Shown: in pieces, positions 300 to 5,649 of the stretch
Position numbering within the stretch: the first letter of the stretch is position 1
Layout: each line of letters starts with the position of its first letter
Source of the DNA: a virus
Strand: one strand, 5' to 3'
Length of the DNA stretch: 5,649 nt
Virus record (IMG/VR): IMGVR_UViG_3300022758_000056
Coordinates: 1 to 5,649 of that record
The notes under the pieces: model-generated
Seen by the model: only the letters and a program-made list of their open reading frames with translations
Databases searched by the model: none
What the model was told of the DNA's origin: nothing
Made by a program: the position numbers and the translations under genes

Positions 300-383
300 A
301 TGTTGAATACTATAATTTTTTATCAGTGGAACGATATTTTGTGGTTAATTTTGATGTTGATACTTTTGTGGATAACTTGTTGA
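300..383 (+). CDS. Possible 27-aa hydrophobic peptide (MLNTIIFYQWNDILWLILMLILLWITC)
   Basis: ATG at 300 follows GGGAG (288-292) with a 7-nt spacer, and the stop is TGA 381-383. The hydrophobicity may simply reflect the T/G-rich repeats the ORF overlaps. Confidence 0.2.
   Translation: MLNTIIFYQWNDILWLILMLILLWITC
340..348 (-). promoter_or_regulatory. DnaA-box-like 9-mer (TTAACCACA on the - strand)
   Basis: + strand TGTGGTTAA. It has one mismatch to TTATNCACA and sits in the repeated context TTTTGTGG. Confidence 0.4.
367..375 (-). promoter_or_regulatory. Perfect consensus DnaA box (TTATCCACA on the - strand)
   Basis: + strand TGTGGATAA is the reverse complement of TTATCCACA. It is followed by CTTGTTGAA. 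Confidence 0.55.
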
Positions 384-401
384 ATTGTTGAAAGTGTAGC
401 A

Positions 402-410
402 ATATGCACA
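402..410 (+). promoter_or_regulatory. DnaA-box-like 9-mer in the opposite orientation (ATATGCACA)
   Basis: Matches TTATNCACA except at position 1. It overlaps the left arm of hairpin 405-424. Confidence 0.3.
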
Positions 411-424
411 AAACTATTTGTGCA
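405..424 (+). other. Hairpin with 8-bp stem and 4-nt loop
   Basis: TGCACAAA (405-412), loop ACTA, TTTGTGCA (417-424). The inverted repeat is perfect. Confidence 0.6.
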
Positions 425-430
425 ACTTTT

Positions 431-439
431 TGTGGAAAA
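431..439 (-). promoter_or_regulatory. DnaA-box-like 9-mer (TTTTCCACA on the - strand)
   Basis: + strand TGTGGAAAA fits the relaxed consensus TT(A/T)TNCACA. It is followed by CCTGTTGAA, the same composite layout as at 364-384. Confidence 0.45.
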
Positions 440-509
440 CCTGTTGAAAGTGTTAAAAGTGTTGAAAACGCAATTAAAGGCCGTCCGGCGAGCGGGACCG
501 GAAAGTTAC

Positions 510-1476: not shown

Positions 1477-1933
1477 CTTCAGGGAAACCGCAACGACAAA
1501 ACCTACCGAGGCCGGAGAAACCGTAAGGCGTACATACCTTTGGGAGTTCAACGAAAAAGGCGAAAAGGTCCTGGTGCTTGACCAGATCATCGACCAGCAG
1601 GCGGAAATCGACAGCTATCTAGAAGAGACCAAGCTTGAAAACATCATCCGGCGGGCATCCATCGACCCTGACCTTGCGGCTAGACTGGTGCCAGACATGG
1701 GTGGCGGGCTTCAAGACGCAACCGAGATGCCGGAGAATCTAATGGAGCTGCAGAACATCATGCTGCGGGCCGAGCAAATCTGGGATGAAATCCCAAAAGA
1801 AATCAAGCTCAAGTTTGACAATGACGTTGATAAATTTGTCACAAGCTTCGGCACTGTCAATTGGGCAAAAAATCTGGGCATCTATCAGGAAGCAAAAAAC
1901 CCGAGGGAACCGAAAACGGAGGCGACTGAATGA
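1454..1933 (+). CDS. Internal scaffolding protein VP3
   Basis: AAGGAG (1438-1443) lies 10 nt before ATG 1454; the ORF track starts at an upstream TTG (1427) that has no SD. The C-terminal part, ...MPENLMELQNIMLRAEQIWDEIPKEIKLKFDNDVDKFV..., matches the remembered gokushovirus scaffold pattern (F..LP..IR..F.N.P..F). The stop overlaps the VP1 start as ATGA (1930-1933). Confidence 0.8.
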   Translation: MAYRSVSNFRETATTKPTEAGETVRRTYLWEFNEKGEKVLVLDQIIDQQAEIDSYLEETKLENIIRRASIDPDLAARLVPDMGGGLQDATEMPENLMELQNIMLRAEQIWDEIPKEIKLKFDNDVDKFVTSFGTVNWAKNLGIYQEAKNPREPKTEATE

Positions 1934-2577
1934 ACAGAAACAAAGATGCAGGATTTAACCAAGTACCGCGGCTGGACATTACGCGAAGTCGCTTCAAACG
2001 GCGGCAGGATGTCAAGCTGACGATGAACGCGGGCCAGCTCATCCCGTTTTACGTGGACGAAGTATTACCCGGCGATACCTTCAGCATCGACCAGGCAGCA
2101 ATTATCCGTATGACAACTCCTATCTTCCCGGTTATGGACAACTGTTATATGGATATTTACTATTTCTACACGCCTAATCGTATCATCTGGGACAACTTCA
2201 AGCGATTCATGGGCGAAAACGATAAAGGACCATGGACGCAGACTCAAGAATACACCATTCCGCAAGTCGAAATCACCGGCACAACCGAAAAACCAGCACC
2301 GTACGAAGGAAGCATCATGGATTATATGGGCATTCCTACCAAGGTAAGCAAGGGAACAGATACGGCATTCAGAGTCAATGCACTGCCGTTCCGGGCATAC
2401 GCCATGATTTGGCAGGAGTGGTTCCGAGACCAGAACGTGGACAATCCGGTCATCAACTTCAAAGGAGACGGATTAATACATTACACAGACAATGAAGAAA
2501 AGGAATGGACGGAACAAAGCCCGATCTCCAATACATTCTCAATCAAGCATACACCGGCGGCAGACCTCTACCTGTAA
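1930..2577 (+). CDS. Major capsid protein VP1, N-terminal segment (frame broken before the gene is complete)
   Basis: GGAGG (1918-1922) lies 7 nt before the ATG. Capsid motifs include RSRFKRRQDVKLTMNAGQLIPFYVDEVLPGDTF, FYTPNRIIWDNFKRFMGEN and LPFRAYAMIWQEWFRDQN. It ends at TAA 2575-2577, while the remaining capsid sequence continues in another frame. Confidence 0.9.
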   Translation: MNRNKDAGFNQVPRLDITRSRFKRRQDVKLTMNAGQLIPFYVDEVLPGDTFSIDQAAIIRMTTPIFPVMDNCYMDIYYFYTPNRIIWDNFKRFMGENDKGPWTQTQEYTIPQVEITGTTEKPAPYEGSIMDYMGIPTKVSKGTDTAFRVNALPFRAYAMIWQEWFRDQNVDNPVINFKGDGLIHYTDNEEKEWTEQSPISNTFSIKHTPAADLYL

Positions 2578-3641
2578 ACAAATACCACGACTATTTTACC
2601 AGCGCGCTACCAAGTCCGCAGAAGGGACCAGCAATTAGATTGCCAATAACTGGAAGCGCACCTCTAGGAATGTACAACGCCAGTAACGGAAGCGTAACCA
2701 TTGATAGCCAAAAAATGGAAGAAATTCTGACAAGTGCAGGAATGACAACCTCTGGAAGCTTATTCACCGCAAACACATGGGACATAGGCATGGGCCCTAC
2801 AAGAAACAAAGGCCTTGCGGTCGGAACCGGGACGGAAGAAACGTATACAGGCGTAGCCTTGGGAGCTGACTTATCAAATGTAACAGCCGCAACCATCAAT
2901 CAGCTGCGGCAAGCATTCCAGGTACAGAAGTACTATGAGCAGCTGGCGCGTGGTGGCAGCCGCTACCGCGAGATGATTTACAGTCTGTTCCATACCAAGA
3001 TTTCGGACAAAACTGTGCAGATTCCGGAATATCTGGGCGGTACACGCATCACCATCAACATGAGTCAGGTCATCCAGACCAGCGGCACGACTACCGAGAG
3101 TCCGCAGGGTAACGCCGCGGCAATCAGTGTTACGCCGTACAACGGCAGTATGTTTACCAAGAGTTTCGAAGAGCACGGCTATGTTATCGGCGTGTGCTGC
3201 ATCCGGCATGACCATACCTACCAGCAGGGCTTGGAGCGCATGTGGAGTCGCAAGACTAATCTGGACTTCTACTATCCCGTCTTTGCAAACCTAGGCGAAC
3301 AGGCCATTCTGAAGAAGGAGCTGTATCTCACTGGTACAAGCACCGATGAACAGGCCTTTGGTTATCAGGAAGCTTGGGCAGAATACCGCATGAAGCCGAA
3401 CCGCATCAGCGGCAAGTTCCGGTCAAATGCAAAGGGGACGTTGGACAGCTGGCACTACGGCGACAACTACAAGGAGACTCCGAGCCTGAGCCAGGCATGG
3501 ATGAAGGAAGGAGATTCCGAGATTCAGAGGACTCTGGCAGTGGACAACGAACCTCAGTTCATCATGGACACGGTCATTGACAACACCAGCGTCAGACCTA
3601 TGCCTATGTACAGCATCCCGGGTCTCGTGGACCATCACTAA
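2505..3641 (+). CDS. Major capsid protein VP1, C-terminal segment (-1 frame relative to 1930..2577)
   Basis: Contains PLPVNKYHDYFTSALPSPQKG and the rest of a capsid-length sequence. This frame is open from 2496. The ATG at 2505 has no SD and is probably an internal Met rather than a true start. Confidence 0.9.
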   Translation: MDGTKPDLQYILNQAYTGGRPLPVNKYHDYFTSALPSPQKGPAIRLPITGSAPLGMYNASNGSVTIDSQKMEEILTSAGMTTSGSLFTANTWDIGMGPTRNKGLAVGTGTEETYTGVALGADLSNVTAATINQLRQAFQVQKYYEQLARGGSRYREMIYSLFHTKISDKTVQIPEYLGGTRITINMSQVIQTSGTTTESPQGNAAAISVTPYNGSMFTKSFEEHGYVIGVCCIRHDHTYQQGLERMWSRKTNLDFYYPVFANLGEQAILKKELYLTGTSTDEQAFGYQEAWAEYRMKPNRISGKFRSNAKGTLDSWHYGDNYKETPSLSQAWMKEGDSEIQRTLAVDNEPQFIMDTVIDNTSVRPMPMYSIPGLVDHH

Positions 3642-3783: not shown

Positions 3784-4038
3784 ATGGGATTTTTCGCAGC
3801 AGCACTACCAATACTTAAAACAGTAGCACCATCGATCATAAGCTGGGGCGTGAACAAGCTTTTAGGCGGAAACATGTCAGAAAGCAGCGGAGGAAGCCAA
3901 CAGCACAACGAAAGCTATAGCCAAGGCGGAGGCCAAAGCAGCGCCGCCAGCGGCGTAAACCGAGAGCAAAATCTGCAAGACTGGAACAGTATGCTGGGAG
4001 CAATTCAGAGCAATATGCAAAGCCAGCAAAAAGTTTAA
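3784..4038 (+). CDS. Minor capsid/pilot protein VP2, N-terminal segment
   Basis: MGFFAAALPILKTVAPSIISWGVNKLLGG... followed by a G/S/Q-rich stretch is a typical VP2 N-terminus. It ends at TAA 4036-4038, just after an A5 run. Confidence 0.7.
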   Translation: MGFFAAALPILKTVAPSIISWGVNKLLGGNMSESSGGSQQHNESYSQGGGQSSAASGVNREQNLQDWNSMLGAIQSNMQSQQKV

Positions 4039-4048
4039 CCGTCGAAGC

Positions 4049-4624
4049 ATGTTCGAACAAATGGGCTATAACACCATGGCGGCAATCACTCAGGGTGTAT
4101 ATAACCAGATAAGCAACAACGCGGCGATGGCCTACAACAGCGCAGAAGCAGCCAAAAACAGAGCTTGGCAAGAGCAAATGAGCAACACAGCTTATCAGCG
4201 AGCCGTGGAAGATATGCGAAAAGCAGGCATCAACCCTATCTTAGCGTACCAACAGGGCGGAGCAAGCACGCCAGGAGGTGCACAGGGTACGATCAGTGGA
4301 GCAAGTATGGGTCTCGCAAGCAGCAGTGCAGCGACAGCAAGCGCTCTCGGAGTAAGCCAGAACCACAACAACACATGGAGCAAAAGCGAAAGCAACTGGT
4401 ACAACGCAGCGCAAGCAGTTGGAGACGCAACAAGCTGGTCACACACAAGCGCAGACAAAGCGTTTAATGCATTCAAGGACATCTTCAACGACCTCAGCAA
4501 CCTAAACAGTGGCGTCGGCGGAGGTGCAGGGAGAAAGCCAACCAAAGATGAGCTTGAATACAAGCCGGGAAGAGACTTCATAGGAAGCAAAAACATCGAA
4601 TATTGGAAAGGAAAACTTAAATAA
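4049..4624 (+). CDS. Minor capsid/pilot protein VP2, C-terminal segment (+1 frame relative to 3784..4038)
   Basis: Carries the VP2 signature AEAAKNRAWQEQMSNTAYQRAVEDMRKAGINPILAYQQGG. No SD precedes ATG 4049 or the next in-frame ATGs. This frame is open from 3959. Confidence 0.85.
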   Translation: MFEQMGYNTMAAITQGVYNQISNNAAMAYNSAEAAKNRAWQEQMSNTAYQRAVEDMRKAGINPILAYQQGGASTPGGAQGTISGASMGLASSSAATASALGVSQNHNNTWSKSESNWYNAAQAVGDATSWSHTSADKAFNAFKDIFNDLSNLNSGVGGGAGRKPTKDELEYKPGRDFIGSKNIEYWKGKLK

Positions 4625-4668
4625 ATAAATGGGATGCAATAAACCGTTAATCCGGTTTTATGTACCTC

Positions 4669-4698
4669 ATGACAGAGAGGCGAGCGGGCGTGTATACT
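4669..4698 (+). promoter_or_regulatory. Candidate sigma70-type promoter for rep
   Basis: ATGACA (4669-4674), 18-nt spacer, TATACT (4693-4698), about 35 nt upstream of the rep ATG. The spacing matches the promoter at 587-616. Confidence 0.4.
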
Positions 4699-4710
4699 CG
4701 CTCGCTTCTT
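4675..4710 (+). other. Stable hairpin overlapping the candidate rep promoter
   Basis: The core is GCGAGCG (4680-4686) with CGCTCGC (4699-4705). It extends to 12 bp with two G:T pairs (4675-4686 with 4699-4710). The 12-nt loop contains the putative -10. Confidence 0.6.
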
Positions 4711-4732
4711 TAATGCGACACATAAGACCAGT

Positions 4733-5647
4733 ATGAAATATGAAGATTTGATGTATCGTAAAGATGTGATGATGATTCCATGCGGACAATGCACAGGATG
4801 CAAACTACGCAAGCGCAAAGACTGGGCCACGCGGATGGAGCTGGAAGCATACAGCCACAAAAAGGAAAGCATCTGGTTTATCACACTGACCTATGATGAC
4901 AACCATGTGCCAACGCAGGACACAGAAACAGGGGAAATCTTCAAAGGAGGCGTGAACGTATGGAAAGACACCTCAGAGCGTCCTAGAACGGTGCAAACTT
5001 TAAACGTGGAGGATATCCAACTATTTATGAAGAGGCTAAGGAAGGCCGTCAGCGAGCCTCTCAGATACTTCCTAGCCGGAGAGTATGGAGACAACACCTC
5101 AAGACCACACTATCACATGATACTATACGGGTGGTATCCAGACGACTTAAAGCCAATTCACAGGCTGTCAAGGTTTGGACACTACACGAGCGATAAGCTG
5201 GTCAAAGTCTGGGGACAAGGGACAGTTGACATAGCTCAAGCAACGCCAGAGACGTATAACTACGTAGCTGGATATGTGACCAAGAAGCTGTACGGAAACG
5301 ACAAAGACAAGTACAGGAAAATGGGACTCATACCGCCATTCTGCGTAATGAGCCGAAAGCCAGGACTCGGAGACGAATGGTTTCAAAAGAATCAAGAAAG
5401 ACTATGGCAACTTGGATACATCCAGCTGACAAACGGAAAGAGAGCAGCCATTCCAGAATATTATTGGCGAAAGCTGGAAGCTGAAAATCCTGAAAAGGCG
5501 TGGAGAATCAAGCAGTATCGACAAAAAAATGCCATTGCATCCCTAATCGAAAGAAACATGGAAACTGACAAACAGTATGCCGAACAACTGGCCGATAAAG
5601 AAGCAGTCATGAAGAAGAAGATGTCCAAAGCAAAGGGCGTTTTTTAG
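4733..5647 (+). CDS. Replication initiation protein VP4 (HUH rolling-circle endonuclease)
   Basis: N-terminal PCGQCTGCKLRKRKDW. Motif I is FITLTY (4877-4894). Motif II is HYH within RPHYHMILYG (5108-5116). Motif III is YVAGYVTKK (5261-5287). 304 aa, with stop TAG 5645-5647. Confidence 0.93.
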   Translation: MKYEDLMYRKDVMMIPCGQCTGCKLRKRKDWATRMELEAYSHKKESIWFITLTYDDNHVPTQDTETGEIFKGGVNVWKDTSERPRTVQTLNVEDIQLFMKRLRKAVSEPLRYFLAGEYGDNTSRPHYHMILYGWYPDDLKPIHRLSRFGHYTSDKLVKVWGQGTVDIAQATPETYNYVAGYVTKKLYGNDKDKYRKMGLIPPFCVMSRKPGLGDEWFQKNQERLWQLGYIQLTNGKRAAIPEYYWRKLEAENPEKAWRIKQYRQKNAIASLIERNMETDKQYAEQLADKEAVMKKKMSKAKGVF

Positions 5648-5649
5648 CT
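5523..5649 (+). repeat. Terminal direct repeat, copy B (identical to 1..127)
   Basis: See copy A. Confidence 0.97.

Follow-up and report, generated by a model that had tools for sequence, protein, structure and literature searches.

The window analyzed here, IMG/VR virus record IMGVR_UViG_3300022758_000056 (5649 nt), is a single circular gokushovirus genome of 5523 nt, its ends at 1-126 and 5524-5649 being identical as a terminal overlap. All genes lie on the + strand, and the closest records are uncultured Microviridae/Gokushovirinae of the gut, from human, pig, monkey and dog faeces. Our subject is a cassette of about 230 nt (239-468), located in a long non-coding stretch that extends from 126 to about 700, with the Rep gene VP4 on one side and small open reading frames (ORFs) and VP5 on the other. 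Judged from its sequence, this cassette is self-contained and follows the grammar of a Clostridial chromosomal origin, in which a basal unwinding system (BUS) is combined with a cluster of boxes for the initiator protein DnaA. The features are as follows, with boxes and trios as predicted:

239-268: AT-rich tract, candidate DNA-unwinding element, 97% A+T over 30 nt
268-288, + strand: DnaA-trio array TTG TTG TAG CCG TAG TAG TAG, the three box-proximal trios being the consensus 3'-GAT-5'
289-292, + strand: G-rich spacer GGAG, 4 nt
293-309, + strand: tandem proximal DnaA boxes TGTTGAAAT (293-301) and TGTTGAATA (301-309), starts 8 nt apart
340-348, + strand: weak box-like 9-mer TGTGGTTAA, 1 mismatch to TGTGGATAA, specific to the window
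355-363, + strand: box variant TGTTGATAC; TGTTGATAA-type boxes are known in the C. acetobutylicum origin module
367-375, + strand: TGTGGATAA, perfect E. coli/B. subtilis-type DnaA box (reverse complement TTATCCACA)
378-394, + strand: second tandem pair TGTTGAATT (378-386) and TGTTGAAAG (386-394), starts 8 nt apart, kept in all relatives examined
405-424, + strand: perfect 8-bp hairpin TGCACAAA-ACTA-TTTGTGCA (arms 405-412 / 417-424; inverted repeat I20), within the box array
431-468, + strand: distal boxes TGTGGAAAA (431-439), TGTTGAAAG (442-450), TGTTAAAAG (451-459) and TGTTGAAAA (460-468), 9-11 nt spacing
195-238: alternating C/G-rich tract with CGCGCACG-like direct repeats (direct-repeat family D2), between the VP4 terminator hairpin and the AT-rich tract
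1013-1131, + strand: small basic protein
1240-1476, + strand: VP5
1427-1933, + strand: VP3
1930-3641, + strand: VP1
3784-4624, + strand: VP2
4629-5647, continuing into 1-125, + strand: VP4 Rep
Tailed scaffold sequence for DnaA strand separation: 5'-TAGCCGTAGTAGTAGGGAGTGTTGAAATGTTGAATAC

A Single Family of Box-Like Repeats

An earlier sequence-only reading of this DNA had described six copies of TGTTGAA with two variants, three copies of TTTTGTGG and one perfect TTATCCACA, all of which we recovered at the positions given there, on one strand and within 293-468. The TGTTGAA copies start at 293, 301, 378, 386, 442 and 460, all on the + strand, and the variants are TGTTGAT at 355 and TGTTAAA at 451; about 1.0 copy was expected, and a count of six was reached in 0 of 200 shuffles. 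TTTTGTGG occurs at 337, 364 and 428, with one further, unrelated copy on the - strand (4855-4862), giving a count of 4 that was likewise reached in none of 200 shuffles (expected about 0.41). Read as reverse complements, the associated 9-mers give TTAACCACA at 340-348, the perfect TTATCCACA at 367-375 and TTTTCCACA at 431-439, the outer two each having one mismatch. The same reading had stressed how rare DnaA-box matches should be. Their number is not unusual by itself, as three matches with at most one mismatch in the whole window compare with 1.15 expected and are reached by 23 of 200 shuffles; what is unusual is their clustering, since the 5523-nt genome has eight 9-mers with no more than one mismatch to TGTGGATAA or TGTTGAAAA, and every one of them is located in 293-468, on the + strand.

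The repeats had been interpreted as composite units that pair a DnaA-box-like 9-mer with a separate TGTTGAA motif. We took the homologous region from 16 GenBank relatives (blast-derived, L001-L016) and found in all of them a one-strand TGTTGAA array of 4-9 copies. The closest clade is where TTTTGTGG and the perfect box of E. coli type mainly occur; the perfect box at 367-375 is kept in L001, L002, L003, L007, L008 and L016 (the box type occurs also in L081/L328) and is missing from most other relatives, the distant ones having TGTTGAAAA at the homologous position. More generally, relatives swap TGTGGATAA, TGTTGAAAA, TGTGGAAAA and CGTGGAAAA at homologous positions, and TGTGGAAAA, TGTTGAAAA and CGTGGAAAA interchange within the distal boxes (431-468). 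Because the two motifs replace each other in this way, TGTTGAA and TGTGGA(A/T)AA are best described as variants of a single 9-mer family, TGT(T/G)GA(A/T)AA, one position of which departs from TGTGNA(A/T)AA, the relaxed consensus of E. coli, and the division into two motifs does not hold. The perfect box, present in the window and its closest relatives, is thus only one interchangeable variant. Two of the proposed members drop out: the first 9-mer (340-348) is not kept even in close relatives, and the inverted near-match ATATGCACA (402-410) is probably not a box, as it forms the left arm of the perfect 8-bp hairpin 405-412 / 417-424, which is retained in the minimum-energy and centroid folds of single-stranded DNA (ssDNA) and is terminator-like by consensus scan. 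We count eleven boxes in the cassette, the proximal pair and about nine more, all in the same orientation. A Bacteroidetes-type promoter motif (TAnnTTTG) over TTTTGTGG was also considered; it fitted one of the three copies by eye and was dropped.

Arrangement of Trios, Spacer and Boxes

The most diagnostic elements are those at 239-309, upstream of the coordinates given in the sequence-only reading, where trios, spacer, tandem proximal boxes and AT-rich tract lie in one register. Positions 274-309 read 5'-TAG CCG TAG TAG TAG-GGAG-TGTTGAAA-TGTTGAATA, with the AT-rich tract on the 5' side, a placement also seen in the B. subtilis origin and, among the matches listed in the bacterial scan described below, in 113 chromosomal origins. 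The BUS is reportedly treated also in Richardson 2016/2019. The consensus DnaA-trio is 3'-GAT-5', i.e., 5'-TAG-3' (PMC8287927), and in vitro DnaA unwinds a B. subtilis scaffold with the sequence 5'-TAGTAGAAGTAATAGTAG-GGCC-TGTGGATT-TGTGGATAA (oHM558; PMC8287927 supplement). The same supplement gives modules for C. acetobutylicum, ...TAGTAGTAG-GGAG-TGTGGATT-TGTTGATAA, and C. botulinum, (TAG)6-GGCT-TGTTGATA-TGTTAATAA (PMC8287927 supplement), and both of these Clostridial modules already carry T at box position 4.

We compared the cassette with the properties by which a BUS is recognized. At least three consecutive DnaA-trios (NAN) are expected on the strand reading 5'-trios-boxes(TGTGGATAA)-3'; we found TAG TAG TAG at 280-288 and TAG at 274-276, with the strand and polarity of B. 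subtilis oHM558. Between trios and boxes, a gap of 0-16 bp is allowed, typically about 4 bp and G/C-rich, with the upstream box about 10-13 bp from the trios; here the 4 nt GGAG precede the proximal box, and the distal box of the pair lies 12 nt from the trios. An AT-rich region follows beyond the trios (239-268). The better of the two boxes should have no more than two mismatches to the species motif and the second no more than four (PMC8287927), and the boxes at 293-301 and 301-309 have one mismatch each to the lineage motif TGTTGAAAA; relatives with TGTGGAAAA, one mismatch from the E. coli motif, remain within this rule under either motif. The dnaA-dnaN chromosomal location is the one point of departure, the element being located in a microvirus; it would thus work like a BUS or copy one, and is no chromosomal origin. 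When the lineage motif is used, the cassette therefore appears to agree with the BUS in every property that can be read from sequence.

Conservation and Orientation in Microviruses

An IMG/VR scan revealed the cassette in many further microvirus-sized contigs. In total we found it in 98 microvirus genomes, whose VP4 is 95% to 32% and whose VP1 is 90% to 38% identical to that of the window, and it invariably adjoins VP4. All relatives have the AT-rich tract, ACTTGTTG-TAG-NNG-TAG-TAG-TAG, 4-5 nt starting with G or A, and two tandem boxes. A second scan was anchored outside the trios, leaving the trio region free, and returned 63 distinct middle sequences, the 63rd (22 nt) being unrelated. All 62 distinct phage versions keep TAG-NNG-TAG-TAG-TAG apart from a few variants in the three box-proximal trios (TAA in four cases, CAG in one and TTG in one); the central A is kept in five of these six, which agrees with the trio rule. 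The spacing is rigid, with 20 nt from AACTTGTTG to the first box in 54 of the 62 versions and 19 nt in the other 8. The distant 4.7-kb microviruses L337 (59-330) and L343 (2331-2620), whose VP4 is about 30% identical, carry (TAG)5-6-GCAT-TGTGGAAATGTGGAAAA followed by 4-5 copies of TGTGGATAA (L343 with one additional TGTTGATAA), in a module that runs against the direction of the genes and directly adjoins VP4 at its 3' end. Canonical boxes in the same layout suggest that the box dialect varies with the lineage while the grammar stays.

Origin-like modules of trios and tandem boxes were also seen in L316, L319 (6316-6345), L322 and L345, and in about 25 further IMG/VR contigs, at sizes of 9-160 kb. 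The L319 module is flanked on one side by a divergent, beta-clamp-like phage gene and on the other by genes for a Cas4-like nuclease and RecT. No DnaA or DnaN homologue was detected by tblastn in these larger contigs, presumably of double-stranded DNA (dsDNA) phages.

The cassette works out to be independent of orientation, as it points in the direction of the genes in 80 of the 98 genomes and is inverted in 18, which form two separate clades. Comparison of MG945233 (L013, 1173-1383) with MG945447 (L014) shows an exact in-place flip of 211 nt with collinear flanks, and this flip appears to set the limits of the cassette, from the AT tract to the last box. These inversions bear on the possibility that DnaA assists the initiation of rolling-circle replication: melted DNA would offer the HUH endonuclease VP4 a nick site in single-stranded form, for which AACTTG/TTG at the edge of the trios is one candidate. 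HUH enzymes cleave single-stranded DNA, this candidate resembles the CTTG|ATA nick sites of phiX174 and pC194, the cassette adjoins VP4, and ACTTGTTG, with two copies in the window (266 and 375), is kept at the boundary of AT tract and trios. However, the latter anchor belonged to our search patterns and its conservation is in part by construction; the C of ACTTG varies in close relatives (ATTTG, AATTG), L337 and L343 lack TTGTTG, and in the 18 inverted cassettes with collinear flanks the nick would fall on the non-coding strand. A phiX-like CAACTTGGATA within VP4 is kept in the closest relatives only. The inversions and the absence from L337/L343 weaken the case for AACTTG within the cassette as a Rep nick site, and we regard a nick-site function as decidedly unlikely.

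The same inversions, together with the predicted structure, argue against a signal acting on single-stranded DNA, that is, a complementary-strand origin at which DnaA would bind a hairpin-held box, as in the A-site of the "ABC primosome" reportedly described by Masai and Arai in 1990. A single-stranded phage needs a priming signal, and the trio strand is the coding, presumably packaged, strand in 80 of the 98 genomes. However, the cassette lies on the other strand in 18, and the ssDNA fold of 230-600 is no better than that of shuffled sequences (z = -0.17), with the direct-repeat boxes unpaired and the perfect box at 367-375 outside any stable stem. We consider such a signal exceedingly improbable. 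As there is no excess folding and the cassette occurs on either strand, its substrate is most plausibly the double-stranded replicative form.

Correspondence with Chromosomal Origins of Clostridia

We scanned one genome per species from 185,579 bacterial species with the phage-derived pattern TAGTAGTAGN{3,6}GTKGAAAN{1,2}GTTGAW. At least 120 genome loci matched, compared with a handful expected by chance (an estimate based on uniform composition), and among the matches listed, 113 of 120 loci were dnaA-dnaN intergenic origins. In these, dnaN lies 40-720 nt 5' of the trios (mostly <400) and/or dnaA lies 3' of the boxes, at about 80-1360 nt (mostly 100-560), with both genes on the opposite strand, as at B. 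subtilis incC. Pfam searches confirmed DnaA and DnaN (beta clamp) in five of five loci tested. The only microvirus contig among the matches listed was L236. The matched genomes are overwhelmingly from gut and rumen bacteria (Oscillospiraceae, Ruminococcus, Acutalibacteraceae, other Clostridia/Eubacteriales and Selenomonas), and TGTTGAAATGTTGAA adjoins the trios in many Oscillospiraceae/Ruminococcus origins.

The boxes themselves also correspond. Fifteen Ruminococcus/Oscillospiraceae/Clostridia origins, including that of R. flavefaciens, contain 12-20 TGTTGAAA boxes per 600 nt and not one TGTGGATAA, and in the 8 of these origins that were examined the boxes are restricted to the dnaA-dnaN spacer. 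The profiles of 953 boxes from 100 phage cassettes and 365 boxes from the 15 host origins almost coincide, with T:G ratios at position 4 of 0.84:0.16 and 0.87:0.13, respectively, and a preference for A at positions 7-9 in both. This profile also bears on a resemblance to the "0A boxes" (TGTCGAA) of Spo0A, by which a spore-former regulator might silence the phage, as in the silencing of phi29 through Spo0A boxes. TGTTGAA is one base from TGTCGAA and the likely hosts are Clostridia, but position 4 is C in only 2 of 967 phage boxes, against T in 796 and the DnaA-like G in 157; TGTCGAA is essentially absent from the host origins examined, and trios and spacer would be left unexplained. We give this possibility next to no weight.

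Box type and DnaA sequence vary together. In loci with non-P/S/Y-type DnaAs (n=27) there are on average 10.0 T-type vs. 1.6 G-type boxes, whereas loci with canonical P/T/H DnaAs (n=14) have 1.6 and 2.2. The DnaA of L209 has R399, D433 and H434 as in E. coli, and P423V, T435S and H439Y are changed, positions at which the DnaA of these hosts departs from that of both E. coli and B. subtilis; P423 and H439 are presumably residues with DNA-contact roles. R399, D433, H434 and T435 are base-contacting residues (PMC13451751). From these comparisons we conclude that TGTTGAAAA (= TTTTCAACA) would be the DnaA box of the Ruminococcus/Oscillospiraceae group and that the phage boxes share this dialect; with its matching changes in DnaA domain IV, the TTTTCAACA box looks like an undescribed DnaA-box dialect. 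Ruminococcus/Oscillospiraceae origins (L137-L256, e.g., L209 2732-3050, L199, L210, L154) carry 12-20 copies of TGTTGAAAA in place of TTATCCACA, and DnaA domain IV in these genomes shows P423V/A, T435S and H439Y.

The sequence-only reading had left room for TGTTGAA iterons bound by a protein other than DnaA, and had held that such a factor would be indicated if relatives conserved the repeats without the positions of the E. coli consensus. Strictly taken, this is what the relatives do; the argument is nevertheless misleading, because the origin of the likely host shows this same deviation from E. coli, and the iterons of that proposal would instead be the DnaA-box dialect that fills Ruminococcus/Oscillospiraceae dnaA-dnaN origins. 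A related possibility is that the repeats serve a phage protein, VP4 or a small DNA-binding protein, as in iteron plasmids and CRESS-DNA viruses, their likeness to host origins being coincidental. They are direct repeats beside a rep gene, and small basic or "DNA-binding" proteins are encoded at 1013-1131 and 1240-1476. However, the repeats do not co-vary with Rep, the same box profile being found from 95% to 32% VP4 identity; the profile equals that of host origins, which make up nearly all of the listed loci; and the register of trios, spacer and tandem boxes has no counterpart in iteron origins. This makes a phage-encoded ligand very unlikely. Recent wholesale capture of a host origin was ruled out, as a core of only about 33-70 nt is common by blastn.

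The phage hosts are probably Ruminococcus/Oscillospiraceae-type Clostridia, as suggested by the shared dialect. In keeping with this host group are strong AGGAGG-type ribosome-binding sites and a promoter candidate of TTGACA/extended -10 type, both identified by eye, as well as a complete gokushovirus-like prophage (VP1/MCP 47% identical) integrated beside xerC at 233-238 kb of pMM59_01 (L347) of Pusillibacter faecalis MM59, an Oscillospiraceae member. This prophage was the only Firmicute microvirus-like match in the plasmid collection, a search of which gave no match to the cassette itself.

Proposed Role of the Cassette

The cassette is very probably an origin-type DnaA-binding module. Recruitment or titration of host DnaA, as the sequence-only reading had proposed, appears strongly supported by the comparative evidence. 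Our overall reading, to which we assign a probability of roughly 70%, is that it acts as an origin mimic that would bring host DnaA to the replicative form and melt the AT-rich tract. Host DnaA-ATP would fill the box array on the double-stranded replicative form, polymerise from the tandem boxes at 293-309 onto the TAG strand at 274-288, and thereby melt the tract at 239-268. As to what the phage would do with the opened DNA, we see the odds as even for the specific use that seems likeliest, entry of the host helicase/primosome, with DnaA-dependent (theta-type) replication of the replicative form or episomal maintenance as the outcome, beside Rep-driven rolling circle. Sequestration of DnaA by a multicopy element would be an unavoidable side effect.

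Alternatively, the cassette may be no more than a sponge or sensor for DnaA, without unwinding: it could titrate DnaA, by which host initiation would be shut down or dnaA de-repressed, or DnaA could serve as a transcription factor on a downstream phage promoter. Eleven boxes on a multicopy replicative form would bind much DnaA, and titration does not depend on orientation, consistent with the 18 inverted cassettes. A candidate promoter (TTGACA at 588, TG-n-TATAAC at 609-617) was identified by eye about 120 nt 3' of the boxes. However, a sponge needs boxes alone and leaves the TAG trios, the 4-5 nt spacer, the 8-nt pair and the 97% A+T tract unexplained, while the register of trios, spacer, boxes and AT tract is held across phages with 32-95% identical Rep. 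As for a sensor, flipping the cassette alters the distance and phase to any promoter, and a promoter/terminator consensus scan called neither the by-eye promoter at 588-617 nor the VP4 terminator hairpin at 135-177. We therefore judge binding without unwinding to be unlikely.

Several points weigh against the origin-mimic reading. DnaA would be the ligand on the strength of the sequence grammar, and TGTTGAAAA is assigned as a Ruminococcus-type DnaA box from its enrichment in origins and the co-varying DnaA residues. With the E. coli motif instead, each proximal box has three mismatches, one too many for the better box. The phage set was gathered by patterns containing trios or boxes, such that the conservation of these elements is partly by construction; free of this bias are the spacing, the box profiles, the gene neighbourhoods and the blast-derived relatives L001-L016. 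The host loci with which the cassette was compared had likewise been picked by the phage-derived pattern, and blastn likeness to host origins is confined to the core of about 33-70 nt. The Pusillibacter faecalis prophage has no DnaA-box/trio cassette. Finally, we know of no need for DnaA in rolling-circle phages.

If the origin-mimic reading is true, the very abundant uncultured gut gokushoviruses would have in this cassette their first defined cis-acting element of replication, and a rolling-circle ssDNA phage would depend on or manipulate the host chromosomal initiator. The cassette would be a portable minimal origin-unwinding module (a core of about 70 nt plus the box array) that is used in either orientation, which bears on what is sufficient for DnaA-driven opening. 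The box dialect may also provide a handle for host prediction, TGTTGAAAA-type boxes pointing to Ruminococcus/Oscillospiraceae and canonical boxes in the other microvirus lineage pointing elsewhere, and the analysis exposes the lineage-specific DnaA box TTTTCAACA in a major gut bacterial group. Mimicry of this kind may be widespread, as similar modules are present in larger, presumably dsDNA phage contigs. More speculatively, and with considerable doubt, many gut gokushoviruses and other phages with the module might be DnaA-dependent "mini-chromosome mimics", their double-stranded form being opened and replicated from a pirated host-origin unwinding module, so that a rolling-circle phage regarded as strictly lytic would have a cell-cycle-coupled, plasmid-like carrier state, with the box dialect reporting the host lineage. 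Our searches of the open-access literature gave no earlier mention of Microviridae with DnaA boxes, DnaA-trios or origin-like modules, in line with the sequence-only reading, and none of a DnaA-trio in a bacteriophage or of the TTTTCAACA box.

Other Features of the Genome

Relative to relatives and family profiles, frameshifts split VP4 (4629-4712 / 4709-5644), VP1 (1930-2577 / 2505-3641) and VP2 (3784-4038 / 4049-4624). It follows that either the window sequence has indel errors or the genome is defective. The non-coding cassette is unaffected by these frameshifts and is corroborated by about 100 other genomes.

The VP4 terminator hairpin is located at 135-177. The C/G tract that follows it (195-238) is seen in most relatives and is potentially Z-DNA-forming. 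On the other side of the cassette, nested GC-rich stem-loops occupy 470-552 (e.g., GTCATGC 510-516 / GCATGAC 543-549, with GGCGC/GCGCC within); they are kept in many relatives, and some clades have other GC-rich structure there. This segment keeps the gene orientation when the DnaA cassette flips, and its stem-loops are candidates for a Rep nick hairpin or an origin of the complementary strand, signals that would be specific to one strand. An Rfam scan of the whole window gave no match at E <= 1.

Comparison with Known Systems

The closest counterpart is the BUS of B. subtilis (incC boxes #6/#7, trios and AT-rich region; Pelliciari 2021, PMC8287927; Pelliciari 2023, PMC10721633), with which the phage cassette has the order of elements, the strand polarity and the 5'-TAG trios in common. 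B. subtilis boxes #7/#6, TGTGGATT-TGTGGATAA, lie on the same strand and have the same 8-nt offset as the phage proximal pair, and the phage spacer GGAG is 4-nt and G-rich like those of B. subtilis (GGCC), C. acetobutylicum (GGAG) and C. botulinum (GGCT). However, the BUS lies between dnaA and dnaN, whereas the phage cassette is located in a 5.5-kb ssDNA phage beside a rolling-circle Rep gene; its boxes all point in one direction, it occurs in either orientation to the rest of the genome, and its unwinding is putative.

Mobile replicons with DnaA boxes by an AT-rich region are well known, as P1 oriR, pSC101, F and RK2 oriV use their own initiator together with host DnaA, which acts through boxes near such a region. 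These origins have Rep iterons and one to few auxiliary DnaA boxes, without a module of trios, spacer and tandem boxes, whereas the phage cassette has no repeats other than its boxes and carries the chromosomal unwinding grammar in full. The dense cluster of boxes also resembles loci that sequester the initiator, E. coli datA and the DnaA-box clusters of B. subtilis; those are chromosomal regulators without trios or unwinding element, and the phage cassette is viral. Within the same virus family, phiX174 has cis-acting signals for its replication: the gene-A origin CAACTTG|ATATTAATAAC, which a short ACTTG in the window resembles, and the PriA assembly site. The phiX174 signals are strand-specific, recognized by gpA or PriA and independent of DnaA, in contrast to the orientation-free, oriC-like cassette described here.

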